The notes beneath the pieces were generated by a model. That model was not told the origin of the DNA and did no database searches. It saw only the letters and a list, made by a program, of their open reading frames with translations. Shown here in pieces: positions 2,876 to 32,996 of a stretch of DNA of 64,000 bases (positions are counted from its first letter, which is position 1; the number at the start of each line of letters is the position of its first letter). The stretch comes from Candidatus Aegiribacteria sp. MLS_C (GTDB taxonomy: Bacteria > Fermentibacterota > Fermentibacteria > Fermentibacterales > JCC-6): contig LQBI01000024.1 in assembly GCA_002030045.1 (NCBI GenBank), positions 202,848-266,847 on the forward strand, given 5' to 3'. A program made the position numbers and the translations under genes.

Positions 2876-2897
2876 TTCTCAGGGACATGACACAGCC

Positions 2898-2929
2898 GGG
2901 AGCGGTCAACGACCGCTCCCGTTCTTTTT
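2898..2929 (+). terminator. Rho-independent terminator.
   Basis: GGGAGCGGTC-aac-GACCGCTCCC perfect 10-bp GC-rich stem followed by GTTCTTTTT. Confidence 0.75.
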
Positions 2930-3030
2930 CGGGCCTTCTCGTGCAGCGGCTGCAGGGAGTGTATTGACAGACGGCGGCCATCGAGTAGCTTCAGTCTGAT
3001 CACCGTCAAGAGCAATGAAGGGGGTGGAGA

Positions 3031-12305: not shown

Positions 12306-15300
12306 ATGGAAACGATACTGTTGATTCTGAACGTTCTGCTGGTCCGCGCCCCGGTGATAACTGAAGTCGCATCTAACCCGCTCATCGAGACCTCCGGCGA
12401 ATTCATCGAGATATTCAACCCCGACATCAATCCCGTGATCATAGAAGGATACTCGGTGACCGACGGCGACGCGCTGGACTTCCTCATTCCATGGGACGAG
12501 AGCCTTCACGGTACGTTCCCTCACGCCGGCATGGTCCTGGGTACCGACACCATTCCCGCCGAGGGCTTCGCCCTGCTCTTCGAACTGGACTACGCAGGTG
12601 ACGGCTGTTACGACATCCCGCCTGGCACAGTCATACTGACCACCGGCGACCATGCCCTTTGCAACGGTCTCTCGGCCTCGTCGGACCCGGTCACTCTGTT
12701 CGATGCCGGCGGCACCGCTGACAGCAATGCGGTCAGCACATACGGAACGCCCGTCCCTTCGGACATCTGGGAAGAGAGGGACGACGACGGTCTCGACGGA
12801 ATACCCTTCGATCCCGGAGAGAACATTACCGTGGAGAGGTACCCCTGGAGTTCCCCCGACACGGAGGGGGCCTGGTTCGCCGGGCCCGAGGGGGGCACTC
12901 CCGGCGCCCATGCCCAGGCCCCTCCCGATACCCTGAACATCTCCTGCGACTCCCTGTGGACCGTCCCCGTGGACCCGCTGCCGGGCCAACCCTTCGAGAT
13001 CCTCGCCCGATTCACCTGCTGGGGCAATGTTTCTCCGTCATCTGGAACCATCACCATCTTCCTGGATGCCGAAGGCGACTCGATACCCGACGCCGGGGAG
13101 ACCCTGGCCCAGTACCCGGCCACCTCCCTTCAACCCGGTGCCTCCATGACTTTCAGCGCCTTCACATCCCTTGAGCAGGGGTGGTACCTTCCCTCCGCCC
13201 TGTCGGAAGTCCCGGAGGACGAATACCCGCAGGACGATTTCCGGTCCGTCCCGGTGGCGGTTGGAGGCGGAATAGACCCCGTGGTCACAGAAGTGATGTG
13301 CAATCCCCTGGACGAGGACAGGGGCGAATACATCGAGATACACTTCCCCGGACCCGGCATCTTCCCGCTGTGCGGGTGCCGGTTCACGGACGGCGACGCC
13401 GTGGACATCATCGTTCCCTGGGACCAGTTACCGCTGACGGACCCCGACGCGGTCTACTCGGAATACCTCCCCGGTGGCTTCTACGGCGTCGTCCTCGATC
13501 CAGAGTACGTCTCGGGCATGCAGGAATACGATCTGGCCGATTCAACCTACGTATTCACCGTGGGCAACACCACCATCGGCAACGGGCTCACGGGAAACGA
13601 CCCGATAACGCTCTACGACTTCGAGGGGACCGCACAGGCCAACGTCATGTCCACCTACGGCACACCTCTCCTGAACGACGATCCTCTCATGTGCGACGAC
13701 GACGGCCTCGACGGCATTCCCTTCGATCCCGGGGAATTCCACAGCGTGGAGAGGAAATCGCACGAGCTGCCGGATGAGGAGTACTGCTGGGCTGTTTCAC
13801 CGGAGGGGGGAACACCGGGGGGCCCGGCAGTATTCTTCGATACTCTGGATGTTTCCGTCGATGCCATCCTGATAGAACCCGACACGCTCCAGCCCGGGCA
13901 GCCGGTGCAGATCTCGACGGTAGTGAGGAACACGGGCACGGCGACGGCCGCCGGGATCGAGCTGACCGTCTTTCTCGATTCCGACGCGGATTCCCTCCCG
14001 CAGCCGAACGAGATACTCCTGTCCCCGGTCATGGATTCACTTCTTCCCGGTCTCGAGGACACGATATCCGTCACGGTAACGGGACCGGAAGAGGGATACT
14101 ACCTGGCGGCTGCAAGGGTCTATCTTCCCGGAGACTCGGATCCGGACAACGACTTCGCGAACAGGAGCTTCAGGACAGGGGACGGGGTCCCGGTGATAAT
14201 CACCGAGGTGCTCTGCAACCCGGAGAACGAGGATACCGACGAATTCGTGGAGGTCCACTATCCCGGTCCCGGGGTGTTCGATGTCACCGGATGCTCCTTC
14301 ACCGACGGCGACGCACTGGACTGGCTCCAGACATGGGACCAGGGACTCGGGACCATAAACGACCCCGAAGCGGTAATATCCCCCTACCTGCCCGCCGGCA
14401 CATACGCGGTCATCCTCGACAGCGAGTACCCCCAGGGGACTCAGCCCTACGACCTCCCTTCCGGTACCCGCGTCCTCACCACCGGGAACACAACCCTGGG
14501 AGACGGACTCACGGGCACCGACCCGGTAACCCTGTACGGCCATGAGGGAACATCAATATCCAGCATCATGTCAACCTACGGCACTCCCCTTCTGAACGAC
14601 GATCCTCTGCTCTGCGACGACGACGGTCTGGACGGAATACCCTTCGACCCGGGAGAGGGCCTCAGCGTCCACCGGATCGACCCCGCCCTTCCGGACGCGG
14701 AGGAGAACTGGTTCGCCCCCCCGACTGGGCCAACTCCCGGGGGGCCTCCCCCCTTCTTCCAGGAGGGAATGAACGCATGCGGGCTTCTCCTGGACTGCTT
14801 CCCGCCAATGGGCCATGGCGGAAAGGAAACGGATCTGATGGCAGAATTCGTCAACACAGGCACCGACACCATTCCTTCGGGAACGATGCAGGTACTCTTC
14901 TTCGCGGACATCGACCAGAGCGGCACGCCTGCCCAGGGGGAGCTGATAGACAGCTTCCTGTGCGGTGCTCTGGCACCCGGCGACAGCCTCGTCGCCGACT
15001 GCGGATGGACCGCTCCGGAAGGCACGGTGGAACTTATTTCGGTCTCCGCCTGCCCCGGCGATTCCTTCCCCCAGGACGACACCCTCCGCTGCACATGGAA
15101 CCTGGCAGGGCCTGTCGTGGTGAACGAGATAATGTACGCTCCCGCTCCGGGGGAGCCGGAGTGGATAGAAATATTGAACAGGTCGGAGGTACCGGTGGAG
15201 ATAACGGGATGGACCACCGAGGACTCAAAGGACCGGGTTGTCTTCTGCCAGGACAGCATGGTCCTGCAGCCGGATTCCTTCGCCCTTATAGTGCCGGACC

Positions 15301-15926
15301 CGGACGAGTTCCTGCAGTTCTGGCCCCAGGTAACCTGCCCCCTGCTCCAGCCGTCATCCTGGCCTGTGCTCAACAACACCACGCAGTCCGGAGAGGAATG
15401 GGCCGACATCATCATCATTCGTGACAGCCAGACGCAGTCAATAGACTACGTCCCCTACGACGACGACTGGGGCGCCTCCCAGGGCGCAAGCCTGGAGAGG
15501 ATCGACCCTGACCAGCCGGGGTTCCCGGAAACCAACTGGACGGGGTGTTCGACGACGGCCACCCCTGGAGAGACAAACAGCTGCTCTGGAGGAGGGGAAG
15601 GGCCGGGGAGGTATCTCCACTACTTCCCCGACCCCTTCTCCCCCGACGGCGACGGCATGGACGACGTTCTGACAATAGAGATGCACTTCGGCCATTCCGA
15701 GAACGAGGTGACCCTGGAGGTATACAACGTGCAGGGCAGGCTCATTCTCAGGCTCCTCGACCGTGAAACCTGCGGCCCCTCCAGGACCGTTTTCTGGGAC
15801 GGCACGGGAGAGGGCGGCTCCAGACTGCCCGTAGGAAGGTACATCATCTACCTCTCATCGAGAGCTGAAGACACCAGAGAATACCGCGAGGACTGCGGAG
15901 TTGTGGTCCTGGCCAGGCGCCTGTGA
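12306..15926 (+). CDS. Giant secreted protein (1206 aa) with four lamin-tail domains (LTD), three tandem repeat units of about 310 aa each, and a C-terminal FlgD-Ig-like / T9SS-type sorting domain.
   Basis: LTD motifs: VITEVASNPLIETSGEFIEIFNP, VVTEVMCNPLDEDRGEYIEIHFPGPG, VIITEVLCNPENEDTDEFVEVHYPGPG, VVVNEIMYAPAPGEPEWIEILNRSEVPVEITGW. Repeated ...STYGTPLLNDDPLxCDDDGLDGIPFDPGE blocks. C-terminal FSPDGDGMDD...TVFWDGTGEGG...RYIIYL. Confidence 0.7.
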   Translation: METILLILNVLLVRAPVITEVASNPLIETSGEFIEIFNPDINPVIIEGYSVTDGDALDFLIPWDESLHGTFPHAGMVLGTDTIPAEGFALLFELDYAGDGCYDIPPGTVILTTGDHALCNGLSASSDPVTLFDAGGTADSNAVSTYGTPVPSDIWEERDDDGLDGIPFDPGENITVERYPWSSPDTEGAWFAGPEGGTPGAHAQAPPDTLNISCDSLWTVPVDPLPGQPFEILARFTCWGNVSPSSGTITIFLDAEGDSIPDAGETLAQYPATSLQPGASMTFSAFTSLEQGWYLPSALSEVPEDEYPQDDFRSVPVAVGGGIDPVVTEVMCNPLDEDRGEYIEIHFPGPGIFPLCGCRFTDGDAVDIIVPWDQLPLTDPDAVYSEYLPGGFYGVVLDPEYVSGMQEYDLADSTYVFTVGNTTIGNGLTGNDPITLYDFEGTAQANVMSTYGTPLLNDDPLMCDDDGLDGIPFDPGEFHSVERKSHELPDEEYCWAVSPEGGTPGGPAVFFDTLDVSVDAILIEPDTLQPGQPVQISTVVRNTGTATAAGIELTVFLDSDADSLPQPNEILLSPVMDSLLPGLEDTISVTVTGPEEGYYLAAARVYLPGDSDPDNDFANRSFRTGDGVPVIITEVLCNPENEDTDEFVEVHYPGPGVFDVTGCSFTDGDALDWLQTWDQGLGTINDPEAVISPYLPAGTYAVILDSEYPQGTQPYDLPSGTRVLTTGNTTLGDGLTGTDPVTLYGHEGTSISSIMSTYGTPLLNDDPLLCDDDGLDGIPFDPGEGLSVHRIDPALPDAEENWFAPPTGPTPGGPPPFFQEGMNACGLLLDCFPPMGHGGKETDLMAEFVNTGTDTIPSGTMQVLFFADIDQSGTPAQGELIDSFLCGALAPGDSLVADCGWTAPEGTVELISVSACPGDSFPQDDTLRCTWNLAGPVVVNEIMYAPAPGEPEWIEILNRSEVPVEITGWTTEDSKDRVVFCQDSMVLQPDSFALIVPDPDEFLQFWPQVTCPLLQPSSWPVLNNTTQSGEEWADIIIIRDSQTQSIDYVPYDDDWGASQGASLERIDPDQPGFPETNWTGCSTTATPGETNSCSGGGEGPGRYLHYFPDPFSPDGDGMDDVLTIEMHFGHSENEVTLEVYNVQGRLILRLLDRETCGPSRTVFWDGTGEGGSRLPVGRYIIYLSSRAEDTREYREDCGVVVLARRL

Positions 15927-16215
15927 AATCCATCAAAGGATTCCCGAATACCGGAACGAAACTCCCCAATCGAAAAGGCTCCCATGGGCATCAATGATAA
16001 CCTGAACCCCTTGTTATGCTGCTGCGGCATAACATCGAGAATTCCGGTGTTAACAAGCACAAGTGTATTGCCCTTGAACGTGTTATCGATATTGACTCGC
16101 ATATATCAATGCTTTTATTCTCTGTCAGCATAACCGGGCAACGGTGTTAACTTAACACGCTGCCGCATAATCATTGTTATGAAGAACCAGTTTGATTCTA
16201 CCGGAAAGGACCATT

Positions 16216-17940
16216 ATGAAAAAACTCTACTATGGAGACAATCTGGATGTTCTCCGAAGAGAGATAGCTAGCAATTCTATTGATCTTATATACTTAGATC
16301 CACCTTTCAACTCTAAAAAATCCTACAATGTGTTATTCTCTGGACCTACCGGTGAAGCAAGAGCACAAATACAGGCGTTCGACGATACTTGGAAATGGAC
16401 GCCAGAGACCGAGAGTATCTACATAGACATGCAAAACGGAAGCGTACCAGCAAGGGTTGCAGATGCGGCTCAAGCATTTCGCTCATTACTTGGTGAAAAT
16501 GATGTTCTCGCATACTTAATAACAATGGCTCCAAGATTAGTTGAGCTGCATAGAGTACTAAAATCAGAAGGATCCCTCTTTCTACATTGTGATCCTGCAG
16601 CAAGCCACTATTTAAAAGTGCTACTGGATGCAGTATTTGGAGGGCGGCGATTCCGAAATGAAATCGTGTGGAAAAGAACTGGTGCCCATACAACCCCAAG
16701 AAGGTTCGAAACAATACATGATATATTGTTGTTTTATGCAAAGGGCGATAATGCATACTTTAATCCAATTAAAACACCTTACACTAAGGATCATGTTGAT
16801 TCAAGATATACCGAAGACGAAAAAGGTAGGCTGAAATTCGTTACAGGCGGGAACATCCTTTCAGGACCTGGTGCTACAAACGGCGACTCGGGCCAACCAT
16901 GGAAAGGTTTTGATCCATCAAGCAAGGGTCGGCACTGGGCAGTACCAGGTTATCTTGCAGAGCAGATGCCAGAGGGATTCTCTGAATTGTCGGTAAGAGA
17001 AAGACTGGATGCTCTCTATGATGCCGATCTAATTGAAATAAAGAAAGGAGCTGAATGGCCGCATCCGGTTAAATACCTTGCGGATGATGATGGTAAATTT
17101 CTATCAGATATCTGGGCATACCAACCAGGTACAGAAGGCGTACTATACGGTACAGACCAAGGAATTGACGCAGATGTGCAATGGATCGGTCCAACAGATC
17201 CAGAAGATCTTGGATATCAGACTCAGAAACCGGAAGGTCTCTTGGATAGGATTATTAGCTCAACATGCCCGCCTGAAGGGATTGTGCTTGATCCATTCTG
17301 TGGTTGTGGAACCACAATTGCTTCCGCACAAAGGCTTGGTCGGAATTGGATTGGGATTGATATCACCTACCTAGCTATTGATTTAATCGAGAAAAGACTC
17401 GTTGCCCAGTACGGTGATAACATATCCGATGAATACGAGATCTTTGGTATTCCGAGAGACATGGATGGAGCAATGACTCTCTTCAACTCAAATCCATTTG
17501 ACTTTGAGAGATGGGCAGTTTCTATTGTAAATGGCCAGCCTAATGAAAAGCAAGTCGGTGATAGAGGTATAGATGGGATCGTGAGATTCCCACTTGATGT
17601 TGCTGGACGAAAGAGCGCGAAAGCAATTGTCTCTGTCAAAGGCGGAAAGTCACTCAACCCAGGAATGGTTAGAGATCTAATGGGTACAGTAGATGCAACA
17701 CAACAAGCAGAGATAGGTATTCTAATCTGCTTAGAAAATCCCACAAAAGGTATGCTTGATGCTGCGGCAAGAGCTGGGGTCTACGAATGGCCCTTAACAA
17801 GAGAGCGTTATCCAAAGGCTCAAGTCATAACAATAGAAGAGTTACTAGATGGCAAAAGACCACATATGCCTCCAACATTGCTCCCATACATTAAGGCTCA
17901 GAAATTTGAAGATCCGAGTGGGCAGATGAAGTTGCTATAG
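16216..17940 (+). CDS. Beta-class N6-adenine/N4-cytosine DNA methyltransferase with a C-terminal Mrr-cat-like restriction-endonuclease-fold domain.
   Basis: Motif IV DPPF (LIYLDPPFNS) precedes motif I (VLDPFCGCGTT). C-terminal GDRGIDGIV...VSVKGGKS resembles an Mrr_cat D...(E/Q)xK core. Low GC. GAAAGGA RBS. Confidence 0.75.
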   Translation: MKKLYYGDNLDVLRREIASNSIDLIYLDPPFNSKKSYNVLFSGPTGEARAQIQAFDDTWKWTPETESIYIDMQNGSVPARVADAAQAFRSLLGENDVLAYLITMAPRLVELHRVLKSEGSLFLHCDPAASHYLKVLLDAVFGGRRFRNEIVWKRTGAHTTPRRFETIHDILLFYAKGDNAYFNPIKTPYTKDHVDSRYTEDEKGRLKFVTGGNILSGPGATNGDSGQPWKGFDPSSKGRHWAVPGYLAEQMPEGFSELSVRERLDALYDADLIEIKKGAEWPHPVKYLADDDGKFLSDIWAYQPGTEGVLYGTDQGIDADVQWIGPTDPEDLGYQTQKPEGLLDRIISSTCPPEGIVLDPFCGCGTTIASAQRLGRNWIGIDITYLAIDLIEKRLVAQYGDNISDEYEIFGIPRDMDGAMTLFNSNPFDFERWAVSIVNGQPNEKQVGDRGIDGIVRFPLDVAGRKSAKAIVSVKGGKSLNPGMVRDLMGTVDATQQAEIGILICLENPTKGMLDAAARAGVYEWPLTRERYPKAQVITIEELLDGKRPHMPPTLLPYIKAQKFEDPSGQMKLL

Positions 17941-17947
17941 GAATCAT

Positions 17948-18018
17948 AACCACAGCGTGAACCAGACGCCTGTAAGAGTTCGGGGTAAATGCTAACGGCG
18001 CTGGTTACGCTGATTGTT
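17948..18018. repeat. Family-1 attC-like imperfect palindromic element, copy 1, immediately 3' of the methyltransferase.
   Basis: AACCACAGCGTGAACCAGACGCC ... GGCGCTGGTTACGCTGATTGTT: the arms are reverse complements. Bounded by AAC...GTT. About 85% identical to copy 2. Confidence 0.6.
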
Positions 18019-18034
18019 ATCTAGAAAGAAGACC

Positions 18035-18940
18035 ATGAATCAACTGCCACAGATGCTTTGTCCCGAGTGCTTAAGACCCATGGAGAATAACGGAAGTACA
18101 GTAAAACCAACAGCAAAGTACAAAGACTGTATTCGAAAGTGTCAAGCCTGTGGTATTGGTTACTCGAATTCAGTAGCAAAACCTTCACTGATTTTCGAAG
18201 ATCCTAGAAAGAACATTCCTGGTTTTGTGGACAGCTCAGATTTTCTCAAAATCCTGGAGAAATCCAATAACCGAAGGAATATCAGTAACAAGAAGTGCAA
18301 AGCGGGATTCTCAACATCAGAGGACGCAGTTACTTATACCTTCGTTAAATCCTTTTCTCAAGCTGATTCAATCGAGCGAATGATGAAAGTACTCGGACTT
18401 GAGATGAACAGCAACCATGTTGATTTGTTTCTATGGGGATGTCCTATTTCAAAAGGCACGGACATTACATTGATTAATAGGATGAATTCTTTGCTAAGTA
18501 ATGAGTTTGCGGAGAGGGCAAATTCTCTCACAGAGCCAGACATTATTCTGAGCGTTGAGGGCTACGGTATTGTCATTATTGAAGTGAAGTTGCACAGTTC
18601 TAACGAAGTTAAAGCAACTGAAAAGTTAAGCAATTATCTGGATCGCAGCTTCTATACTAATGTAGCAAAGGCAAAGTCCTCTCAGCATTATGAGCTAGTT
18701 AGAAACTGGTCAATTGGTAACGCCTTATCCGAGGGTTGCAACTTCACACTTATCAATTTAGGCAAAGAATCATTGTTTACAGACCGAAATGCATCAAAGC
18801 TACAGCTGTTTAAGGAATCACTAAACTGTAATAAGAGGCGCCAGTTTGCTCAGGTATCCTGGGAAGAAATTCTGAACAGATTAGAAGAGAGGGATTCTCA
18901 GTTAAAAGAATATCTGAAGAGGAAAACAAAGTATAGATAA
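18035..18940 (+). CDS. Putative restriction endonuclease: N-terminal Zn-ribbon plus a PD-(D/E)xK nuclease core.
   Basis: CPEC...CQAC ribbon. EPDIILSVEGYGIVIIEVK reads as PD-x13-EVK. Adjacent to the methyltransferase. Low GC. Confidence 0.55.
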   Translation: MNQLPQMLCPECLRPMENNGSTVKPTAKYKDCIRKCQACGIGYSNSVAKPSLIFEDPRKNIPGFVDSSDFLKILEKSNNRRNISNKKCKAGFSTSEDAVTYTFVKSFSQADSIERMMKVLGLEMNSNHVDLFLWGCPISKGTDITLINRMNSLLSNEFAERANSLTEPDIILSVEGYGIVIIEVKLHSSNEVKATEKLSNYLDRSFYTNVAKAKSSQHYELVRNWSIGNALSEGCNFTLINLGKESLFTDRNASKLQLFKESLNCNKRRQFAQVSWEEILNRLEERDSQLKEYLKRKTKYR

Positions 18941-19007
18941 CCACAGCATGAACCAGAAGCCTGCAAGGAAATGGGTAAGGTTAACGGCTCTGGTTACGCT
19001 GATTGTT
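18939..19007. repeat. Family-1 attC-like element, copy 2, immediately 3' of the endonuclease gene, overlapping its stop codon.
   Basis: AACCACAGCATGAACCAGAAGCC ... GGCTCTGGTTACGCTGATTGTT. Shares an 18-nt exact match (CTGGTTACGCTGATTGTT) with copy 1. Confidence 0.6.
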
Positions 19008-19050
19008 GTGCGTATAAATGCTATAGACACTTAACGCTAGTGGAGGAAGA

Positions 19051-19812
19051 ATGTCAGATGAAATGAAGGGGAAAGTGGCGCTGATTACCGGTGGTAGTTC
19101 TGGAATCGGTAAAGCAGCTGCCTTTGCGTTTGCCAACGAGGGAGCACAGGTAGTAATCGCCAGCAGATCAGAGGATACTGGAGAGAAAGCTGCCAGCGAT
19201 ATAAGACAATCCGGTGGAAATGCGAAATGGATTAGGGCAGACGTAACGCAGGAAGACCAAGTTAAGACATTGGTAACACTGATATTAGAGGAGTATGGCA
19301 GGCTTGATTATGCCTTCAATAACGCAGGATCAGGTGGAAAAGGCGGTTGGACTACTGAGATAGAGGAAGAGGACTGGGATAAGACAATATCAGGCTTTCT
19401 GAAGAGTGTATGGCTGTGCATGAAACACGAACTACCAGCAATGCTTGATAACGGACAAGGTTCGATAGTGAATAATTCATCTGTAGACGGTAAACGAGGT
19501 TTCCGTTGGGACCCCGTTTACTCAGCTGCGAAGCATGGAGTGATTGGGTTAACAAAATCATCTGCATTGCAGTATGCCCAGCAAGGAATCCGTATTAACG
19601 CAATCTGCCCTGGATGGATAATAACCCCTCCAGTTGAGAAGATACTAGAGCATAATCCCGAAGCAGGGAATGGTATGCTTCTTCACCAGCCAATTGGAAG
19701 ATTCGGTAAACCTGAGGAAGTAGCTCAGGCAGTTGTCTGGCTGTGTTCAGACAAGTCATCATTGATTACAGGCACAGTGCTTCCAATTGATGGAGGCTAT
19801 CTAGCGATATAA
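19051..19812 (+). CDS. SDR family oxidoreductase (3-oxoacyl-ACP reductase-like).
   Basis: TGGSSGIGKA (Rossmann motif), NNAG, YSAAK (YxxxK). GGAGGA RBS. Confidence 0.85.
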   Translation: MSDEMKGKVALITGGSSGIGKAAAFAFANEGAQVVIASRSEDTGEKAASDIRQSGGNAKWIRADVTQEDQVKTLVTLILEEYGRLDYAFNNAGSGGKGGWTTEIEEEDWDKTISGFLKSVWLCMKHELPAMLDNGQGSIVNNSSVDGKRGFRWDPVYSAAKHGVIGLTKSSALQYAQQGIRINAICPGWIITPPVEKILEHNPEAGNGMLLHQPIGRFGKPEEVAQAVVWLCSDKSSLITGTVLPIDGGYLAI

Positions 19813-19821
19813 ACCGCACGG

Positions 19822-19897
19822 CAACAGAATGCAGCAGAACAGCGTTTGGGAGTTTAACCTGGGTTTTTGCAGTCTGCTGATTCAGAGCGTTCAATAG
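19822..19897. repeat. Family-2 attC-like structured repeat, copy A, 3' of the SDR gene.
   Basis: ...AATGCAGCAGAACAGCG...(loop)...TTTTTGCAGTCTGCTGATT..GAGCGTTCAAT, with imperfect inverted arms CAGCAGAAC.GC / GCAGTCTGCTG. Confidence 0.55.
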
Positions 19898-20293
19898 AAA
19901 AGATAGAAGTCATATCAAACCGGACAGAGATTATCAAGGTAGATAATCATCATTTTAATGATGATATTACAGTCGGTCTTTTCGACAATTTGCAATCCTT
20001 AAGCGAATCTCCGAAAATCAGGTATTCTAATGCTTTGCTGATGCATCAAAAGCAGACTAACCAATTCCGACTAATTGGGTACATTGTCCGAATATAGAAA
20101 TAATAAAATAATTCACACACTCATGTAACTTGTTATTAAATTTTTAAAAGGTTATCATTGTAGTATGTGTGAAGAGTTAATTCTTTCACTGTGAAATCAA
20201 TCTGGGCTATGAAACAAGTCTAACTAACATCGTGTTACATCCTGTCAATAAGTTTACTTCTTTCGAGCTTATGATATTCGGAAGGAGAAAGTC

Positions 20294-22147
20294 ATGTGTT
20301 CACGGGTTATTTTCCTTGCTACTTATCTGGTTATGTTCGCGCCCTTTGAAGTTTACGCAGGTACCGCAACCCAGACTGACTGGTCCGGCGGTGACGGAAT
20401 CTTCGGACCGGTTATAGACTGGGGCAATGAGTTCTATTCTGATACAGACATTGAATGCTACAACAGTCCTTTCAATATTGTTCTCCAGAAAACAATGGCT
20501 CTGACTCCTCTGGAACATACCGTTTGCGGGGATTTCGTTATGCCTGCGGGAGTGTACTCTGCTGATGTCAACGGAGACGGCTATATGGATGTTCTCGGAG
20601 TATCCGTTGCTGCTAGTAATATTACCTGGTGGGAGAATCTGGATAGCTCGGGCACAAGCTGGGCTGAACACATTGTTGATGGAGATTTCGATGGTGCCCG
20701 ATCAGTGTATTCCGCTGATGTCAACGGAGACGGCTATATGGACGTCCTCGGAGCAGGCTGGACAGCCAACGACATCACCTGGTGGGAGAGTATTGACGGC
20801 TCGGGAACAAGCTGGACGGAACACATCGTAGATGGGGAATTCCATACCGCCGCCTCAGTGTATTCCGCTGATGTCAACGGAGACGGTTACATGGATGTCC
20901 TTGGAGCATCTTACAATGGCTCTTTGATCTCTTGGTGGGAGAATCTGGACGGTTCGGGTACCAGTTGGACGGAACATATTGTTGATGGGGCTATCAACAG
21001 TGCTATTTCAGTATGTGCTGCAGATGTCAACGGAGACGGCTACATGGATGTTCTCGGAGTTTCTCAAAATTCATCCTATGTTGCCTGGTGGGAGAATGTG
21101 GACGGCTCGGGCACAAGCTGGGCTGAACATACAGTTGACGCGTCTTTCGGGGGTGCCTATTGGGTATCCTTCGCGGATGTCAACGGGGACAGTTACATGG
21201 ATGTTCTGGGAGCTGCCGCTGATGATGACGAAATCACCTGGTGGGAGAACGTTGACGGCTCGGGCACAAGCTGGATGGAACATATCGTAGATGATAATTT
21301 TGATTATGCCTCATCAGTATACTCCGTGGATGTCAACAGAGACGGCTACATGGATGTCCTGGGCTCAGCTCAATATGCCAACGACATCACCTGGTGGGAG
21401 AACACTGACGGCTCGGGCACTAGCTGGACGGAACATACCGTAGATGGTGACTTCGGTGGTCCTTTCTCAGTGTTTTCCGCTGATATCAACGGAGACGGCT
21501 GGCTGGATGTCCTCGGAGCTGCATATCTTGATAACGACATAACCTGGTGGGATCTGACCGAATATCTCCCTGATGGTTCGCTTGAATCCAGCGTGCTAAA
21601 TGTACAGGAAAGCCCAGACTGGCAGACAATTGACTGGACCTGTACCGAGCCTGCCGGGACAAGTGTTGCTGTGCAGGTGAGGGCTTCGAACAATTCTTCC
21701 AGCATGGGAGCCTGGTCGGATACACTTACAGCTCCCTGTACCCTGGAAGGAATCCTGTCCGACGAAGACAACTATTTCCAGTACAGACTCATACTGAGCA
21801 CCACCGATTCGTTTCTTTCTCCCGTGCTTCACGATGTAGCTGTAGGCTGGGAGCCGTTCACCGGAACGCATGAAGGATCCCGGGTAGAGGTTTCCACATA
21901 CTCTCTATACGGCGCGCAGCCAAATCCGGCACTGGGTCATGCAACGCTGGTCTTTTCGCTGCCTGTTGATTCAAAAGCTGAACTGACAGTATACGACCTG
22001 ACCGGGCGAGTGGTTTACTCCATTAATGGTGTGTACAGTACAGGCGTGCACGAGGTGATACTCGAAGGTCTTGCAAGTGGTGTGTACATGGCCCTTATGA
22101 CCTCGGAAGAATTTGTGGCAACGCTCCAATTCGTTGTGATCGATTAG
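20294..22147 (+). CDS. Secreted FG-GAP/VCBS-repeat (beta-propeller) protein with a T9SS type-A C-terminal sorting domain.
   Basis: Signal peptide. Eight or more tandem repeats of about 60 aa (VYSADVNGDGYMDVLG...ITWWEN.DGSGTSWTEH.VD) carrying a DxNxDGxxD Ca-binding loop. C-terminal QPNPALGHATLVFSLP...LTVYDLTGRVV...SGVYMAL. Confidence 0.75.
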   Translation: MCSRVIFLATYLVMFAPFEVYAGTATQTDWSGGDGIFGPVIDWGNEFYSDTDIECYNSPFNIVLQKTMALTPLEHTVCGDFVMPAGVYSADVNGDGYMDVLGVSVAASNITWWENLDSSGTSWAEHIVDGDFDGARSVYSADVNGDGYMDVLGAGWTANDITWWESIDGSGTSWTEHIVDGEFHTAASVYSADVNGDGYMDVLGASYNGSLISWWENLDGSGTSWTEHIVDGAINSAISVCAADVNGDGYMDVLGVSQNSSYVAWWENVDGSGTSWAEHTVDASFGGAYWVSFADVNGDSYMDVLGAAADDDEITWWENVDGSGTSWMEHIVDDNFDYASSVYSVDVNRDGYMDVLGSAQYANDITWWENTDGSGTSWTEHTVDGDFGGPFSVFSADINGDGWLDVLGAAYLDNDITWWDLTEYLPDGSLESSVLNVQESPDWQTIDWTCTEPAGTSVAVQVRASNNSSSMGAWSDTLTAPCTLEGILSDEDNYFQYRLILSTTDSFLSPVLHDVAVGWEPFTGTHEGSRVEVSTYSLYGAQPNPALGHATLVFSLPVDSKAELTVYDLTGRVVYSINGVYSTGVHEVILEGLASGVYMALMTSEEFVATLQFVVID

Positions 22148-22295: not shown

Positions 22296-22377
22296 ATTGA
22301 ACAAGCAAATGCAGCAGAACTGCGTCAGAACTATTGAAACTCAGGTTTTTGCAGTCTGCTGATTTAAGCGTTCAGTC
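22296..22377. repeat. Family-2 structured repeat, copy B, about 150 nt 3' of the FG-GAP gene.
   Basis: ATTGAAC-AAGCAA-ATGCAGCAGAACTGCG...GGTTTTTGCAGTCTGCTGATT-TAAGC-GTTCAGT. The R''-L''...L'-R' style layout has AAC/GTT boundaries. Confidence 0.55.
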
Positions 22378-22510
22378 GACCGCAGTCGGAAAAGAAATAA
22401 ACGGAAAATGAATATGAAAACGCTGCAGGAAAAGATAAACAAGTATGCGGAAAGCGGTCGACTGAATGGGCCGCGTATTACCACACGCTAGTTCATCCGC
22501 CTGCGGCGTC

Positions 22511-22551
22511 TGAACAAGCGTATGCAGCAGTCATTGAATCCGAACAAAATG
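22511..22551. repeat. Degenerate partial copy of the family-2 repeat (5' arm only).
   Basis: TGAACAAGCGTATGCAGCAGTCATTGAATCCGAACAAAATG resembles the 5' halves of copies B and C. Confidence 0.35.
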
Positions 22552-22647
22552 AAAGCAAGGCTTATACCTCCGCCGCCGGGAAACTCATCCCGGCTCAATT
22601 GCTGATCTTTTGCTTGTGGATCCATGTTTTTCTAGTCGTTGAATGAT

Positions 22648-23007
22648 CTAGGCTTTCTCGTTCTTTTCGTAGTGAACCCGTGCGTCTCGCAGAAGATGTA
22701 CACAATGGGTATTAAGGCTTTCTCCATGGCGCAGGGCGTCTATGGTAAGTTCTTTGTGTAGATCCTTGCCGACTCGAAGAACAAACTTGCCCGAGTAATC
22801 TTTGCCAGCGGTTTCAGCAGGAAGGGTTGCACCGTCTTGCCCGTATATCTCGATCCACTCTTCTACTACCTGGCAGAGTTCGCGATATACCTTAGCTTCA
22901 TCGTCTCCATGAACACCTCCAAGCATAAGCCCGGGACATGTGCCGATGTAGCAATGATCTTCTTCCGACCACTCGACAATCTTGAGATATCGGTCACTCG
23001 TTTTCAT
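22648..23007 (-). CDS. hicB: HicB family antitoxin.
   Basis: 119 aa. HicB-like fold features (YIGTCPGLMLGGVHGDDEAKVYRE). Overlaps hicA by 4 nt. Confidence 0.6.
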   Translation of the reverse strand: MKTSDRYLKIVEWSEEDHCYIGTCPGLMLGGVHGDDEAKVYRELCQVVEEWIEIYGQDGATLPAETAGKDYSGKFVLRVGKDLHKELTIDALRHGESLNTHCVHLLRDARVHYEKNEKA

Positions 23008-23198
23008 TCCATCACCTCGCGGATTGCTTTCTCTACCTCGCGCTCCTGATACTTCTTTGCGTCCTGCGAAAGGTAACCGCTTATTGTTATCTTCGCTCCC
23101 TTGGGGTGAGTGAAGTTTCGATGGCTACCTTTTCCGCCGCGGTTTATAAAACCCGCATTCTTCAGGTCGCGAATCAACTCTCTTACTTTCCTCGGCAT
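23004..23198 (-). CDS. hicA: HicA family mRNA-interferase toxin.
   Basis: MPRKVRELIRDLKNAGFINRGGKGSHRNFTHPKGAKITISG is the canonical HicA/YcfA sequence. Confidence 0.75.
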   Translation of the reverse strand: MPRKVRELIRDLKNAGFINRGGKGSHRNFTHPKGAKITISGYLSQDAKKYQEREVEKAIREVME

Positions 23199-23454: not shown

Positions 23455-23537
23455 GAACACAACAACAAAATGCAGTAGAACTGCGCAGCGGTGCCTGAAG
23501 GTTATGCTTTTGCAGTCTACTGATTTTGAGTGTTAAA
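23455..23537. repeat. Family-2 structured repeat, copy C, upstream of hicA on the opposite strand.
   Basis: AAAATGCAGTAGAACTGCG...GCTTTTGCAGTCTACTGATTTTGAGTGTTAAAA. Confidence 0.5.
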
Positions 23538-23630
23538 AAGCCAAGTAATTTGCCAATCATTGTAGGGGCTATTTTGTTCCTGATTGGTTTTATTATCGTA
23601 TTACTAAACTATATCGTAGGAGGGTAACAA

Positions 23631-23903
23631 ATGGAATCGATACAAGAGGTGCATCTGTTCATTGAAGGTGGTGGAGATCAGAGACTTGTTAATGAGATTA
23701 TTCAAGCACTACACCCTGAATTTCTTAGGATACCTGGCCTGAGAATACACAAGCATGATGTTGCAAATTGGCCAGAGGAGCCTTTTGTCTATGCAGCAAT
23801 CAGTTTGAAGACACAACACGGAATCAAGTTGACGACATCCAATTGCCTCACACAAGATGGATCAGCGTACGGAAAGAAATTGTACCTGATTATGGTCAGA
23901 TAG
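23631..23903 (+). CDS. Hypothetical small protein.
   Basis: GGAGGG RBS 7 nt upstream. 90 aa. Low GC. Confidence 0.35.
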   Translation: MESIQEVHLFIEGGGDQRLVNEIIQALHPEFLRIPGLRIHKHDVANWPEEPFVYAAISLKTQHGIKLTTSNCLTQDGSAYGKKLYLIMVR

Positions 23904-24028
23904 TAGGTTGCCATAACCAGGGACAACCCTGCCTTACACTCGGTCGGGAACTCCGCTGCGCTCCTTTCCCGCCGGTGAAGGCAACATTAAGTAGAAGAAT
24001 ATGGATGAAGGAACAAAATACAGAGTGA

Positions 24029-24433
24029 TTACTCAAGGTTTGGCACAAAGTCACAGAGATATGTGACCAGAATCGGGAAGAGGTCTTCATGACGATGATT
24101 ATACCTGAACTCCTGTTCCTTCAGGTAGAGCGGGAAATTTTTGTGTGAGACACCATGATGCTTTATAAGACGCTCCTTGGCAAAACTCCAGAACCCTTCG
24201 AGACCGTTGATGTAGACACGCCCCCGGGAGAACTCCTTTCCGTGGTCAACCTTGAGATGCCTGTAACCGCAGAACATCAGGCTGTCATATATCTGGAAGC
24301 GATCGTTGTATACAATGCTTCCCCGGCGGACCTTCTTCAAAGTCAGACCGAGCACGGTCTCGGCCCTGACAGCAGGCTCCGTTCTGCTCACAGTCCTCGC
24401 GGAATTCGTATTCGAACTGTTCCAGAGCATCAT
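24029..24433 (-). pseudogene. IS1595-family (ISXO2-like DDE) transposase, C-terminal fragment only. N-terminally truncated or decayed.
   Basis: GSIVYNDRFQIYDSL..YRHLKVDHGKEF..VYINGLEGFWSFAKERL matches the DDE_Tnp_IS1595 C-terminal half. An in-frame stop lies 5 codons upstream of the first Met. GC composition shifts to host-like immediately 5' of it. Confidence 0.6.
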
Positions 24434-24949: not shown

Positions 24950-25951
24950 TTAGAAACTGCTCAGGGCTATGCTGAGCCAGAGGGGCAGCGTCAGGAGGGC
25001 TGCGAGGTGGACCGCCAGCTGCAGCCCTGAGACCAGTTTCCACCTGCCTCCGTACCTTCTCGCGACAAGCGCGTGGTTCGTGGCGGGAGGAGCCGCGGCG
25101 ACCAGTACCAGGATCGTGGCAGCAAGCGGTTCTACCGGAAGGTTCCTCAGCACCGCATACACCGCCAGGGGGACCGCGATGAGCCTTATCAGGACAAGTG
25201 GTACCGTGTACCTGGAGGGTATCCCGCGAATGCTCCCGGCTCCAGCGATCATGCCGCCCAGTATGATCATTGCCATGGGCGAGAGCATTCGGCTCACGAA
25301 CTCCAGTACGGACATGATCGTCTCAACGGGAGCCATGCCTCCCTGGATCCCCCTCGCCGATTCACGCACCCCCGGTATGAAACTGATGAGGATACCAGCG
25401 AAGAACGAGACTATGGGGGGATTGAATATCCGTTTCAGCCTCTCTGCCGCGGTCAGGTCGGCTGACCTTCCGAGCAGCTTCACACCCGCGGTCCACATTA
25501 TCGCGATGGACGGTAGTGAGACCATTGAGATGTACATGACGGCCTGATCGTGCATGTGCCCTGGAGTCACGGCCAGGATGACGGGCAGCGGTAGATAGAG
25601 ACTGTTGGATATCATCATCATGGCCACCACCGACCGGTCGGCCTGCGGGTCTCCTCCGGGCAGGATCCTGTAGAGCATCGTCCCCGCCGCCCAGGAGAGG
25701 ACTATCCAGGCGGTGGAGAAGAGAACGAGCACGAGCCCCTCCTCCAGTATCTCCAGTGAGAAGGATCGGGCCATGGCCAGCACGAAGGTGCAGGGGATCA
25801 CCACGTCGATCAGGAACCTCACCAGATCCGAGAGGGTGTCTTCACGGATCCATTTCCGCCGGACCATCAGGAACCCCAGCAGCACCAGGAGCGCCATCTG
25901 CCCTATCACGTCGATTGATGTGTACAGACCCTGAAGGAATGATTCCGACAT
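24950..25951 (-). CDS. AEC (auxin efflux carrier / malate permease-like) family transporter.
   Basis: About 10 TM helices, two-repeat topology. Host-like codon usage. Confidence 0.6.
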   Translation of the reverse strand: MSESFLQGLYTSIDVIGQMALLVLLGFLMVRRKWIREDTLSDLVRFLIDVVIPCTFVLAMARSFSLEILEEGLVLVLFSTAWIVLSWAAGTMLYRILPGGDPQADRSVVAMMMISNSLYLPLPVILAVTPGHMHDQAVMYISMVSLPSIAIMWTAGVKLLGRSADLTAAERLKRIFNPPIVSFFAGILISFIPGVRESARGIQGGMAPVETIMSVLEFVSRMLSPMAMIILGGMIAGAGSIRGIPSRYTVPLVLIRLIAVPLAVYAVLRNLPVEPLAATILVLVAAAPPATNHALVARRYGGRWKLVSGLQLAVHLAALLTLPLWLSIALSSF

Positions 25952-26479
25952 CTTACACCCGTTCAGCTTTGTTCATTTGGCCTGAACTCTCCCTGTAAGG
26001 AACTCCGGGTTTCTCGCCGGGATACCGGTGGATCCGACATTGCCCTCCTCCAGGACGCCGTTCCATACGCGATCCGGCAATGACCGGCTGATGGCATCAC
26101 CACCTCGGCCGCACTGAAGAGAAATGCCTTCGGAAGCGACGCTGGTCCTGAGGACCAGTGCATACTAACAGGGTAGCGGCGTCAAGACCAGCGGCGACCT
26201 GACCTGTTGAGCCGTGACCTTCCAGGCTCCTTCCTGTTCGAAGTAATCTGGATAGCCTAATCAAGGGGTTGGATTCCGGGAATTCTAATTGTCGCCAAGC
26301 GGGAGTATTAAGTGTCGCTGATCACTTGTCATCCAGCAAAGGGCCAGCATATATCTGGAAGAAGGTGTTAAGGACCAGGTAGCGCTAACGACTGGACTAA
26401 CCTGATACAGCCGCTCCGGGACGGGTCTCGGTAATGCCTGTGCAGGTTATTCGGAGCGTCAGGCGGATTGAGAAGAAGA

Positions 26480-28312
26480 ATGACTGCACAGCAATGGATC
26501 ATACTGGGAATCCTTACCGTAACGATGGCCTTGTTCATCTGGAATCGCTGGCGGTACGATGTAGTGTCGCTGATGGCACTGCTGGTGGTCACTGTTACTG
26601 GAATCGTTCCGCCCGATGAGGTTTTTTCGGGGTTTGGCCATCCGGCGGTTATCACCGTTGTGGCGGTGCTTGTGGTGAGCAAGGCGCTGTTCAATGCCGG
26701 CGTGATTGATCTGATCGCGCGTCAACTGGGACGGGTCGGCGACCGGCCGACGGTTCAGGTGGCGGCCCTGACGGGACTGGTGACGGTGTTTTCGGGGTTT
26801 ATGAACAATGTCGGGGCGCTTGCGCTGCTGATGCCGGTGGCGACCTGGATGTCGCGCAATAGCGGTCGCTCACCGTCGCTGCTGCTGATGCCGCTGGCCT
26901 TCGGGTCGCTCTTGGGCGGGATGCTGACACTGATCGGGACACCGCCCAATATGATTATCGCTGCGTATCGAGCCAATGTTGCCGAGACGCAGTTCGGGAT
27001 GTTCGATTTTTTGCCGGTTGGCGTCAGCGTCGCCTTTGTCGGGGTGGTCTTCATCGCGCTGGTCGGCTGGCGGCTGATTCCCAAAAAACAGGATAGTGTC
27101 GCATCCGGGGAGCTGTTTGAGGTCAGCGAATATATCAGCGAGTTGCGCGTTCCCGAAGAATCCAAGTTTGTCGGGTTTCCGCTGCACGATCTGCTCTCGG
27201 TGATGCCGAACAAGGAGGATATTACGATTGTCGGTCTGGTGCGTAACGACAAGCGTTTTTTGGCGCCGTCGATGTATCGCGTCCTCAGAGCCGACGACAT
27301 CCTGATGGTCGAGACTGATTCGGACAGCCTCAAGAATTTGATCGACGACGGCGGGCTGGAGTTCATCGAGGGCGACAAGAACGATGAAAAAGACGAAGAA
27401 GGGGAAGAAGAAGAAGAGGACGAAAAAGAAAAACCCGACAAGTCGATTGAATCCGACGACGTCAGTGTTCTCGAGGCCATTGTCGCACCCGAATCGCTGC
27501 TGATCGGGAAGACCGCCTCCAGTCTGTTACTGCGTGAACGTTACGGGGTCAACGTCATCGCCGTCGCCCGTCGCGGAAAGCGTCTTCAGGAACGACTGGG
27601 GCGCATTCGATTCCAGGTCGCAGACATACTGCTGCTTCAGGGCGGGGCCAATTCGCTGCCGTCCACGTTATCGGAGTTGGGCTGTTTGCCCCTGGCCGAG
27701 CGCGGACTGCGCATCGGAAAGCCGCGCAAGGTGCTGCTGCCGGTCGGCATTTTCGCGGTTGCGATGACGCTGGTGGCGATAAATGTGCTGCCCGCCCAGA
27801 TCTCCCTGACCTGTGCGGCGGTGGTGATGATCGTTGCCGGGCTGCTGTCGCCGACCGACGCGTACAAAAGTATTGACTGGCCGGTGGTGGTGCTGCTGGG
27901 GGCGATGATTCCCATCGGTAACGCCTTTGAAACCACCGGCAGCGCGGACTTGATCGCCAGTCAGCTGCACGGCATCGCACAGGCCGCCACGCCGGCGGCG
28001 ATGCTGGCGATCCTGATGGTAGGAACGATGCTGTTGAGCAATATTGTCAACAATGCAGCGGCGGCTATTCTGATGGCACCGATTGCCGCCGGCCTGTCCC
28101 ACGCCATCGGCGCCAATGCAGACCCGTTTTTGATGTGTGTGGCGGTCGGCGCTTCCTGTGCGTTTCTGACGCCCATCGGCCACCAGTCCAACGCGATGGT
28201 CATGGCGCCGGGCGGGTACAGGTTCAGCGACTACTGGCGAATGGGTCTGCCCGTCTCCGTTCTGGTGGTGGTCGTGGGTGTCCCGACGATTCTTCTGTTC
28301 TGGCCCTTATAG
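26480..28312 (+). CDS. SLC13/DASS-type anion permease with two central TrkA-C (RCK_C) domains.
   Basis: N- and C-terminal CitMHS-like TM bundles. Two TrkA-C-like segments (YISELRVPEESKFVGFPL, IVAPESLLIGKTASSLLLRERYGVNVIAVARRGK). Acidic insert DKNDEKDEEGEEEEEDEKEK. Codon usage differs from the rest of the contig. Confidence 0.75.
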   Translation: MTAQQWIILGILTVTMALFIWNRWRYDVVSLMALLVVTVTGIVPPDEVFSGFGHPAVITVVAVLVVSKALFNAGVIDLIARQLGRVGDRPTVQVAALTGLVTVFSGFMNNVGALALLMPVATWMSRNSGRSPSLLLMPLAFGSLLGGMLTLIGTPPNMIIAAYRANVAETQFGMFDFLPVGVSVAFVGVVFIALVGWRLIPKKQDSVASGELFEVSEYISELRVPEESKFVGFPLHDLLSVMPNKEDITIVGLVRNDKRFLAPSMYRVLRADDILMVETDSDSLKNLIDDGGLEFIEGDKNDEKDEEGEEEEEDEKEKPDKSIESDDVSVLEAIVAPESLLIGKTASSLLLRERYGVNVIAVARRGKRLQERLGRIRFQVADILLLQGGANSLPSTLSELGCLPLAERGLRIGKPRKVLLPVGIFAVAMTLVAINVLPAQISLTCAAVVMIVAGLLSPTDAYKSIDWPVVVLLGAMIPIGNAFETTGSADLIASQLHGIAQAATPAAMLAILMVGTMLLSNIVNNAAAAILMAPIAAGLSHAIGANADPFLMCVAVGASCAFLTPIGHQSNAMVMAPGGYRFSDYWRMGLPVSVLVVVVGVPTILLFWPL

Positions 28313-29455: not shown

Positions 29456-29799
29456 ATCCCTTCCTAGTTGGTAGAACAAAGTAGGAGCAATAAGGGATTA
29501 GGGTGACCCATTCCTCCTTCCTGGGCAACCCCGGGGAAAGTGCACACCATATCGGATACAACCTTGGCGGCATCATTCTTCATGATTTTCAATGCATTGT
29601 TCTCAAAACAATGAAGGGGTCTGACAACCGCATCGACTCGGACAGGCAATTCCGCTGCGCTCCATTTCCAGACGGTTATGCGAAGCGTTGTCTTCAGAAA
29701 GGAATACTAGCATATAGCGTTATGCGTTATCGCACGTACTCATGATACGCAGCTTCAAGTGCCGGGAAACCGAACAACTATTCAATCGGGAAAGACCTG

Positions 29800-32899: not shown

Positions 32900-32985
32900 G
32901 AAGCGTATGCGAAGGGGTGCCCCGAAGGAGGGCTGAGAACAGACCCTAGGAACCTGATCTGGTTAGCACCAGCGGAGGGAGAACG
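32900..32985 (+). promoter_or_regulatory. TPP (THI-box) riboswitch in the thiC leader.
   Basis: GGGGUGCCCCGAAGGAGGGCUGAGA...ACCCUAGGAACCUGAUCUGGUUAGCACCAGCGGAGGGA matches the THI element core (CUGAGA, ACCUGAUCUGGUUAAUACCAGCGUAGGGA). Lies directly 5' of thiC. Confidence 0.85.
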
Positions 32986-32996
32986 GAAAAAGGACG

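Follow-up and report, generated by a model that had tools for sequence, protein, structure and literature searches.

Two palindromes flanking a nuclease gene of Candidatus Aegiribacteria sp. MLS_C are very probably integron attC sites in a cassette array without an integrase gene

Introduction

The genome of Candidatus Aegiribacteria sp. MLS_C, a member of the candidate phylum Fermentibacterota, contains a nuclease gene that is flanked by two imperfect palindromes in direct orientation. Here we examine these palindromes and their surroundings in 64,000 nt of contig LQBI01000024.1 (assembly GCA_002030045.1, positions 202,848 to 266,847 of the forward strand), referred to below as the window, whose own numbering is used throughout. 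We conclude with a high degree of confidence that the two palindromes are integron attC sites, designated attC1 and attC2, and that they belong to an array of gene cassettes. Because no integron integrase gene (intI) was found in the window, we classify the array as a CALIN (cluster of attC sites lacking an integron integrase). Cury et al. 2016 (PMC4889954) apply this term where two or more attC sites share a strand and are separated by less than 4 kb, and where neither an integron integrase gene nor a pseudogene of one is present within 10 kb. A preliminary description of this DNA, made from its letters alone, had recognized the attC architecture (R''-L''...L'-R' with an AAC/GTT core), and this reading is borne out by the fold of the palindromes, by covariation among their relatives, by complementarity between the R' of one site and the R'' of the next, by the G/TT boundaries of a shared cassette (here and below, the slash in G/TT marks the crossover point), and by linkage of the same sites to intI in related genomes.

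Results and Discussion

Sequence and extent of the palindromes

The two elements are located as follows.

17944-18022, + strand: attC1 (family 1; the first palindrome of the preliminary description), R'' TCATAAC, R' GTTATCT, crossover G18016/T18017.
18935-19011, + strand: attC2 (family 1; the second palindrome), R'' AGATAAC, R' GTTGTGC, crossover G19005/T19006.

The copies had previously been placed at 17948-18018 and 18939-19007. These positions stand, although the extents do not, as the full elements are slightly longer at 79 and 77 nt, respectively. An identity of about 85% had been given for the pair, and the mean column identity is indeed 85% over 97 aligned columns. The window contains the exact 18-mer common to both copies, CTGGTTACGCTGATTGTT, at two positions only, 18001-18018 and 18990-19007. 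In 100 shuffled controls there was no match, even when up to two mismatches were tolerated. The arms CAGCGTGAACCAGACGCC and GGCGCTGGTTACGCTG are complementary as described, save for two extra bases in the 5' arm, and enclose loops of 26 nt (copy 1) and 24 nt (copy 2), close to the earlier estimate of about 25 nt. Each copy was also said to start within 10 nt of a stop codon, which is the case: the TAG of the upstream DNA methyltransferase gene (17938-17940; the methylase) lies 3 nt ahead of attC1, and the TAA of the nuclease gene (18938-18940) sits within the first 7-mer of attC2, AGATAAC. Between the copies there is a single compensatory change, in which CGCC paired with GGCG in attC1 becomes AGCC paired with GGCT in attC2 (n=1).

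Hairpin fold and covariation

For the bottom (-) strand of attC1, single-stranded DNA folding gives -17.1 kcal/mol (z = -4.75 versus shuffles). In bottom-strand order, ATAAC pairs with GTTAT, and there follow an unpaired spacer of 3/2 nt, 6 bp, a bulged C, 6 bp, a bulged T, 4+2 bp and the loop. Numbered from the R'' end, the extrahelical bases are C16 and T23, with a stem of 6 bp between them. Their distances from the R box are the same as in the aadA attC. The second site, attC2, shows the same architecture with one G.T pair. Extrahelical bases of attC sites lie on the arm opposite AAC (Nivina et al., PMC5027507); position 16 is usually G, the last extrahelical base (23 or 24) is a conserved T, and IntI1 needs a 6-bp stem between the first and last of these bases (PMC5027507). 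Folding of the bottom strand, which the preliminary description had proposed as a check, gives an R box, a spacer, a stem with two extrahelical bases, and a loop, with the geometry reported in that study. The geometry of attC1 is canonical, and only the identity of the first extrahelical base (C) departs.

Covariation was assessed in an alignment of 12 sequences and then in one of 54 distinct family-1 members. Six pairs (AACCAG with CTGGTT) and the first bulge are invariant through the way in which the set was selected and are therefore uninformative, so that the signal comes from the remaining pairs. Over the 54 members, 87.3% of cells in the proposed structure are paired, and double-sided changes are found in 84 cells distributed over 11 pairs. 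The covariation score is 0.188, compared with 0.073 +/- 0.007 in shuffles (0 of 500 reach 0.188) and with a maximum of 0.080 after sliding the partners by 1-3 columns; the 12-sequence alignment gives the same picture. Each of the three AAC/GTT pairs retains standard pairing in 45 to 50 of the 54 sequences, and 44 of the 54 sites have T as the distal extrahelical base of the bottom strand.

A separate feature of the alignment is one stem pair, at columns 14 and 70, that is A.C on the top strand, and hence G.T on the bottom strand, in 42 of the 54 family-1 sites. A folding bias that favors the bottom strand has been reported for attC sites (PMC5027507). The asymmetry fits this bias and would favor folding of the recombinogenic strand.

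Cassette boundaries

Crossover in integrons takes place at G/TT, and the last 6 nt of R' consequently become part of the next cassette and complement the R'' of that cassette. Across 25 adjacent attC pairs from 10 arrays, R' and the next R'' match at a mean of 3.32 of the four variable bases, against 1.38 for random cross-array pairs (P < 1e-5) and 1.63 when each site is compared with its own present R'. Complementarity is perfect in 17 of the 25 adjacent pairs. Within the window, the R'' of attC2 (AGATAAC) and the R' of attC1 (GTTATCT) are exact reverse complements. So are GTTATGA at 16176-16182 and the R'' of attC1 (TCATAAC), and, further along the array, GTTCAAT at 19889-19895 (R' of attC3) and ATTGAAC at 22296 (R'' of attC4).

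The same boundaries are seen in a Logan contig, L019, of which positions 2746-3741 align with window positions 18016-19007 at 87.7% nucleotide identity over 997 nt. This block of homology runs from G/TT to G/TT, the predicted crossover points, and the flanks are unrelated. The nuclease gene of L019, which encodes an 85% identical protein, sits between two attCs in an array with PhdYeFM/YoeB, BrnT/CopG and HigB/HTH cassettes and a UbiE-type methyltransferase. A 63% nuclease homologue (L021/L022) is likewise bracketed by attCs, and in a separate integron, on L023, a 41% homologue occupies the second gene position after intI (453.5 bits on TIGR02249). Given that the same block is bounded by G/TT in L019, and that the homologues in L021-L023 are bracketed by attCs or linked to intI, the nuclease gene together with its attC constitutes a discrete mobile unit. 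The earlier suggestion that the methyltransferase and endonuclease genes are separate cassettes is upheld by the R'/R'' rule and by the L019 block.

The attC family and its linkage to integron integrases

A covariance-model search was another check that had been proposed. Our own model, R1, was built from 12 family members and is partly circular for attC1 and attC2 themselves, which it scores at 91.6 and 88.2 bits, respectively. It makes seven same-strand matches in the window, including sites after other genes. A pattern scan of one genome per species returned 16 matches, which were sorted by eye; eight are true family members, all of them in Fermentibacterota or unnamed metagenome-assembled genomes (MAGs), including Ca. 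Fermentibacteraceae, Ca. Sabulitectum and Ca. Aegiribacteria. Of 39 matches in a metagenome scan, about 31 are true. The other eight genome matches and about eight of the 39 metagenome matches fall by chance within genes of unrelated bacteria and were removed on visual inspection. The search for further copies recommended in the preliminary description was thus productive, with family members on at least eight genome contigs and about 31 metagenome contigs (about 40 contigs in total), and no match in plasmid and phage collections. Judged by the sequences that it matches, the attC family is Fermentibacterota-specific.

In two of these genomes the sites adjoin an integrase gene. An open reading frame (ORF) of L011 (Ca. 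Fermentibacteraceae BB12) scores 330.9 bits on TIGR02249 'integron integrase' (cutoff 265) and is oriented divergently from an array in which a family-1 attC closes the first cassette. Next to this intI the junction sequence is ...AATCATTG/TTAGGT, and GTTAGGT is the reverse complement of the R'' of that attC, ACCTAAC. In Ca. Aegiribacteria GCA_023138735 (L031-L033), intI is accompanied by at least 10 attCs on one strand, family 1 and a second family described below both being present, and the junction reads ...AATCATTG/TTCACT. The IntI homologue of L031-L033, P0221, carries the NCBI name integron integrase, as do proteins of many Fermentibacterota MAGs. The best 120 IntI homologues include several Ca. 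Aegiribacteria entries, none labelled MLS_C. A recombinase next to an attC in L018 was also considered and is Xer-like, not an integron integrase. A literature search found no paper with both 'Fermentibacteria' and 'integron'.

Alternative explanations and points of doubt

Two other origins for the palindromes were weighed. Because the elements lie directly 3' of stop codons and form hairpins, they could in principle be intrinsic terminators or intergenic repeats of the REP (repetitive extragenic palindromic) kind that happen to follow genes, and conserved terminators had been named in the preliminary description as the finding that would speak against attC sites. However, no T-run follows the stems, the loops are 24-26 nt long, and terminator-like matches in 15900-20300 are at chance level (3 versus 3.4 expected). 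Nor would terminators account for R'/R'' complementarity, for homology blocks bounded by G/TT or for linkage to an integrase, and we regard this explanation as extremely improbable. That two similar copies in direct orientation flank a single gene might also suggest a local duplication around the nuclease gene, or the ends of a transposon or of a unit resembling a miniature inverted-repeat transposable element. The closest relatives of each window copy, however, are sites in other contigs (85%), with each window site ranking only 20th of 53 in similarity to the other; there are no target-site duplications and no transposase, and the mobile unit shared with L019 holds one copy only, at its 3' end. 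Hardly any probability attaches to a duplication or transposon.

Several observations do weigh against identification of the palindromes as attC sites. The fold of attC2 on its own is marginal versus shuffles (-9.8 kcal/mol, z = -1.65), because of its one G.T pair and because its R' 7-mer is owned by the neighboring cassette. The first extrahelical base is C instead of the usual G of known attC sites; C is fixed in family 1 by selection of the set, and it is also the first bulged base on the bottom strand in all three family-2 sites of the window. Owing to four extra pairs, the central spacer is unpaired over 3/2 nt only, and the 7-mers (TCATAAC, AGATAAC) agree only in part with the RYYYAAC/GTTRRRY consensus. 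An Rfam 15 scan of the window reported no attC match. Four of the sites listed below (attC3, attC5, attC7 and attC10) are degenerate. Finally, a tblastn search of the 64-kb window for intI, using IntI1 and seven Fermentibacterota IntIs as queries, gave nothing better than E = 0.01. One ORF of 333 amino acids at 24950-25951 (- strand) was suspected of encoding an integrase and is a Mem_trans transporter gene.

Organization of the cassette array

The array spans 16013 to ~29795 (~13.8 kb) and consists of at least 7-10 cassettes. At ~16000 the GC content drops abruptly from 0.61 to 0.43 at the start of a low-GC stretch (0.40-0.52), compared with ~0.60 for the genome, and most cassettes are 41-49% GC in this 60% GC background. 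The genes of the low-GC island are those for the methylase, the nuclease, a short-chain dehydrogenase, an FG-GAP protein with a type IX secretion domain, an inverted HicAB pair and a 90-amino-acid ORF, each followed by a + strand palindrome. From left to right, and in addition to attC1 and attC2, the features are as follows.

16013-16182, + strand: left end of the array, with ccccttG/TTATGC at 16013, GCATAAC at 16027 and 16109, a short hairpin, and ATAATCATTG/TTATGA at 16167-16182.
16216-17940, + strand: cassette 1 gene (cassette 16177-18016), 574-amino-acid N6/N4 DNA methyltransferase with a C-terminal restriction-endonuclease-like domain.
18035-18940, + strand: cassette 2 gene (cassette 18017-19005), 301-amino-acid nuclease with a Zn-ribbon and a PD-(D/E)xK domain.
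19051-19812, + strand: cassette 3 gene, short-chain dehydrogenase (Pfam adh_short_C2, 5.2e-66).
19816-19895, + strand: attC3 (family 2, partly degenerate), R'' GCACGGC (expected GCACAAC), R' GTTCAAT; model R1, 15.2 bits; direct-repeat families D8 and D17.
20294-22147, + strand: cassette 4 gene, FG-GAP repeat protein with a type IX secretion sorting domain (Pfam FG-GAP_3, 1.6e-53; Por_Secre_tail).
22296-22376, + strand: attC4 (family 2), R'' ATTGAAC, R' GTTCAGT; model R1, 20.1 bits, and the cassette rule.
22648-23198, - strand: HicB/HicA toxin-antitoxin pair, inverted cassette (Pfam HicB, 1.8e-10; HicA_toxin, 2.7e-10).
23457-23538, + strand: attC6 (family 2), R'' ACACAAC, R' GTTAAAA; model R1, 26.3 bits; bottom-strand fold z = -3.33.
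23905-23995, + strand: probable attC7, after the 90-amino-acid ORF at 23631-23903; bottom-strand fold -20.2 kcal/mol, z = -3.41.
24029-24433, - strand: IS1595-family transposase remnant, C-terminal 134 amino acids only (NCBIfam transpos_IS1595, 1.4e-17; Pfam DDE_Tnp_IS1595).
26383-26464, + strand: attC8, a GC-rich relative (GC 0.60), R'' CGCTAAC, R' GTCAGGC (GTC for GTT); model R1, 21.1 bits.
26468-28312: CitMHS transporter gene of host GC content, between attC8 and attC9.
28347-28406, + strand: attC9, a 60-nt GC-rich (0.70) family-1-like site just 3' of the CitMHS gene; model R1, 23.7 bits; fold -19.7 kcal/mol, z = -3.64.
28307-29576, - strand: IS256/Mutator-family transposase pseudogene in three reading frames (Pfam Transposase_mut, 8.3e-28 and 4.4e-17 on two fragments).
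29612-29795, + strand: right end of the array, a degenerate attC (attC10) at ~29612-29691 (TGACAAC...GTTGTCT) and then the first 110 nt of a HigB-type toxin cassette.

A further candidate, attC5 (~22510-22620), could not be delimited confidently, as the model reports nothing there and there are two candidate R' boxes. Family 2 comprises the sites at 19816-19895, 22296-22376 and 23457-23538, which share the arm TTTTGCAGTCTGCTGATT and follow the short-chain dehydrogenase, FG-GAP and HicAB cassettes; relatives occur in the intI-linked array of L031/L032. The FG-GAP gene itself contains six 153-nt tandem repeats (20463-21518). In probable attC7, a hairpin, the 5' arm of the top strand carries three additional bases and a GTT is not clearly recognizable at the 3' end; the core TCCGCTGCGCTCC of this site is common to 29600-29695.

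At the left end, AATCATTG/TT at 16167-16178 is identical to the crossover sequence beside intI in L011 and L031-L033. The 10-mer AATCATTGTT, located at this first junction, is also found in L011 (~2599), L032 (~9816), L059 (112) and L037 (3341, - strand). In L037 the motif follows promoter-like TTGACA...GATAAT, yet L037 is without intI. When the left end is compared with the intI-adjacent junctions, nothing aligns beyond the shared core. We tentatively propose AATCATTGTT as a candidate conserved attI crossover core for Fermentibacterota; the attI reading is tentative because nothing else aligns and because L037, too, lacks intI. The segment 16013-16182 is probably either an attI remnant or a cassette without an ORF. 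If the left end is an attI core, the methylase would be the first cassette and intI would have been lost. In the JGI assembly of the same organism (L001, ~9940-9955), ~14 nt (TTAACACGCTGCCG) of the window at ~16143-16160 are missing from a small hairpin left of the first junction, which could be either a population polymorphism or an assembly collapse at the palindrome.

Toward the right end, the array continues past the point at which GC content rises. The sequence of attC8 aligns without gaps with attCs of L011, L048 and L039, with 43 invariant columns. Sites attC8 and attC9 may be old cassettes native to the MLS_C genome, or may have ameliorated to host GC content. At the end of the array, window positions 29684-29795 are 85% identical to L019 2029-2141, the start of the HigB cassette in that contig. 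In the window this cassette is truncated against the 3' end of a host epimerase gene (29800-30762, - strand), and the hairpin of the adjoining degenerate attC is no more stable than those of shuffled sequences. In the JGI assembly of this organism, the contig stops at the IS1595 remnant.

Features elsewhere in the window include a thiamine pyrophosphate (TPP) riboswitch (Rfam RF00059, 61.7 bits) at 32903-32999 (+ strand), directly upstream of the ORF at 32997-34295, which is the sole Rfam match in the window. A gene for a 1206-amino-acid LTD/CHU_C protein has three ~920-nt repeats (12447-14675), and a pair of diverged paralogous genes is situated 16.7 kb apart (38425-39057 and 55161-55793).

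The methylase and the nuclease

The methylase matches Pfam N6_N4_Mtase (1.6e-39), NA-iREase1 (2.8e-08) and PADLOC MTase_II (1.8e-50), and the gene is also present on JGI contig 3300001533 MLSed_10000102. Residues ~434-553 form a restriction-endonuclease-fold domain, to which the 'inactive' NA-iREase1 model fits better than Mrr_cat. It contains GDRGIDG...VSVKGG; Mrr-type enzymes have Q or E where VSVKGG has S. The domain architecture is kept at 55-60% identity in thousands of proteins, actinobacterial ones included. The nuclease matches Pfam REase-ARP weakly, at 26.6 bits, just under the 27-bit cutoff, and its residues E167-P168-D169...E183-x-K185 are invariant in 39 homologues. A protein recorded under the name Candidatus Aegiribacteria sp. 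MLS_C is 100% identical to part of the nuclease. The AlphaFold2 model has a pLDDT of 95. The nuclease has no match among PADLOC models and PDB sequences and no significant fold match in the PDB; its weak structural neighbors are the type II enzymes Bse634I, BstEII and EcoO109I.

That a PD-(D/E)xK nuclease gene comes immediately after an MTase_II-type methylase gene, both on one strand, invites the view that the two cassettes make up one cognate type II restriction-modification (RM) system, whose two parts could be excised independently. A cell that lost only the methylase cassette would then die, and the pair would serve as an addiction module that stabilizes the array. The type II character of the nuclease's weak structural neighbors points the same way, and integron cassettes are reportedly enriched in restriction-modification and other defense genes (bioRxiv 10.1101/2024.07.02.601686). 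However, no N6_N4 methylase accompanies the nuclease in any of seven other contexts, whose homologues range from 85% to ~30% identity and which include L019, L021, L023, L028, L029 and L030; in L030 a type I RM operon precedes the nuclease homologue. Among methylase homologues, the closest (80%, 69% and 67%) have unrelated neighbors and no attC, and the intergenic DNA 3' of the 80% homologue (L024) contains no palindrome. The methylase family, moreover, has thousands of members across many phyla, and about 31 further family-1 loci are without either gene. The position of the methylase is also awkward for a single system, as an attI-proximal cassette is normally the newest insertion and the nuclease would then predate its methylase. 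Conserved pairing of the two genes was not seen in the neighborhoods of the seven nuclease and four methylase homologues. The single restriction-modification system implied by the preliminary description is not sustained by these neighborhoods, and we consider a split system unlikely.

Instead, the nuclease more likely works alone, as has been reported for several nucleases that the Vibrio cholerae integron carries on single-gene cassettes (bioRxiv 10.1101/2024.07.02.601686). A more specific proposal, which we put forward only as a tentative possibility, is that it is the first representative of an as yet undescribed family of nucleases that are carried on cassettes and act alone, perhaps as a modification-dependent restriction enzyme or as some other defense that needs one gene only. 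It would then move among integrons of three or more lineages, represented by the window, by L019/L021 and by L023 with its linked intI. Adjacency to the methylase would in that case be coincidental, or would represent a new two-cassette RM module that makes the array addictive.

Comparison with known systems

In their AAC...GTT ends, imperfect bottom-strand hairpin, R box, spacer, L-region stem and variable loop, the window sites resemble attC sites in general (59-base elements), such as attC-aadA7 of class 1 integrons and the Vibrio cholerae repeats (VCRs). Also shared are extrahelical bases at 16 and 23 opposite the AAC arm with a 6-bp stem between them and a conserved T as the distal base, the G/TT crossover with the last 6 nt of R' in the next cassette, and a location directly after an ORF. 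The similarity from site to site within a lineage is like that of sedentary chromosomal integrons. Unlike known attC sites, those of the window have C as the first extrahelical base, the short 3/2-nt spacer and 7-mers of partial fit to the consensus, and their family is restricted to Fermentibacterota. Integrases of Fermentibacterota may have co-evolved to read C, not G, at the first extrahelical position.

Like other CALINs, the window array has the site spacing and the absence of intI that define the class, is associated with insertion sequences, and carries cassettes unrelated to resistance cassettes. Unlike them, it keeps an apparent attI core (AATCATTG/TT) at its left end and mixes low-GC with GC-rich cassettes. 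With this attI-like core and the mixed GC content, the array looks like a decapitated chromosomal integron eroded by insertion sequences and not like cassettes inserted at secondary sites. The chromosomal integrons of L011 and L031-L033 have attC families 1 and 2, the candidate attI crossover motif, and a cassette content of toxin-antitoxin pairs, methyltransferases and small unknown ORFs in common with the window. In contrast to the window, with no integrase and a host GC content of 0.60, they have a TIGR02249 integrase divergent from the array and a host GC content of ~0.42-0.47. Compact single-gene nuclease and methyltransferase cassettes, and toxin-antitoxin cassettes within the array, are also reminiscent of the defense cassettes of Darracq et al. 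(bioRxiv 10.1101/2024.07.02.601686). The nuclease of the window differs in that it matches no PADLOC model and no solved structure.

Mechanism and history of the array

Each palindrome forms the 3' end of a cassette, that of the methyltransferase (16177-18016) or that of the nuclease (18017-19005). By the established integron pathway, the - strand, when single stranded, would fold into a hairpin, in which an integron integrase would recognize the R box, the short unpaired spacer and the bulged C16 and T23. The integrase would then cut the bottom-strand AAC between A and C, corresponding to G/TT on the top strand. Recombination between two neighboring sites would release a circular cassette that could be reinserted at attI. 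The array probably derives from a complete integron after loss of intI, and it could be mobilized only in trans. Since the cassettes contrast with the genome in GC content, and since the same attC families adjoin intI in low-GC Fermentibacterota, the data suggest that the low-GC cassettes were imported from such lineages by an integrase since lost or located elsewhere in the genome. The sequence, fold and covariation of the sites, the cassette boundaries, the presence of the nuclease cassette in a second array and the association of the family with intI elsewhere are observations, and actual recombination, the history of intI loss and expression are inferred.

Significance

For integron biology our findings confirm and do not surprise. 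They describe a clean and ordinary case of a familiar system, in a phylum that has received little study. Three features are modestly interesting, namely C as the first extrahelical base, the repeated occurrence of the nuclease as a solitary cassette, and the difference in GC content between the cassettes and their host. The tempting annotation of one restriction-modification system is corrected, as the nuclease is independently mobile and usually solitary. The array also provides a worked example of a decapitated integron (CALIN) that two insertion sequences have eroded, and offers evidence at base-pair resolution for integron cassette exchange in the candidate phylum Fermentibacterota.

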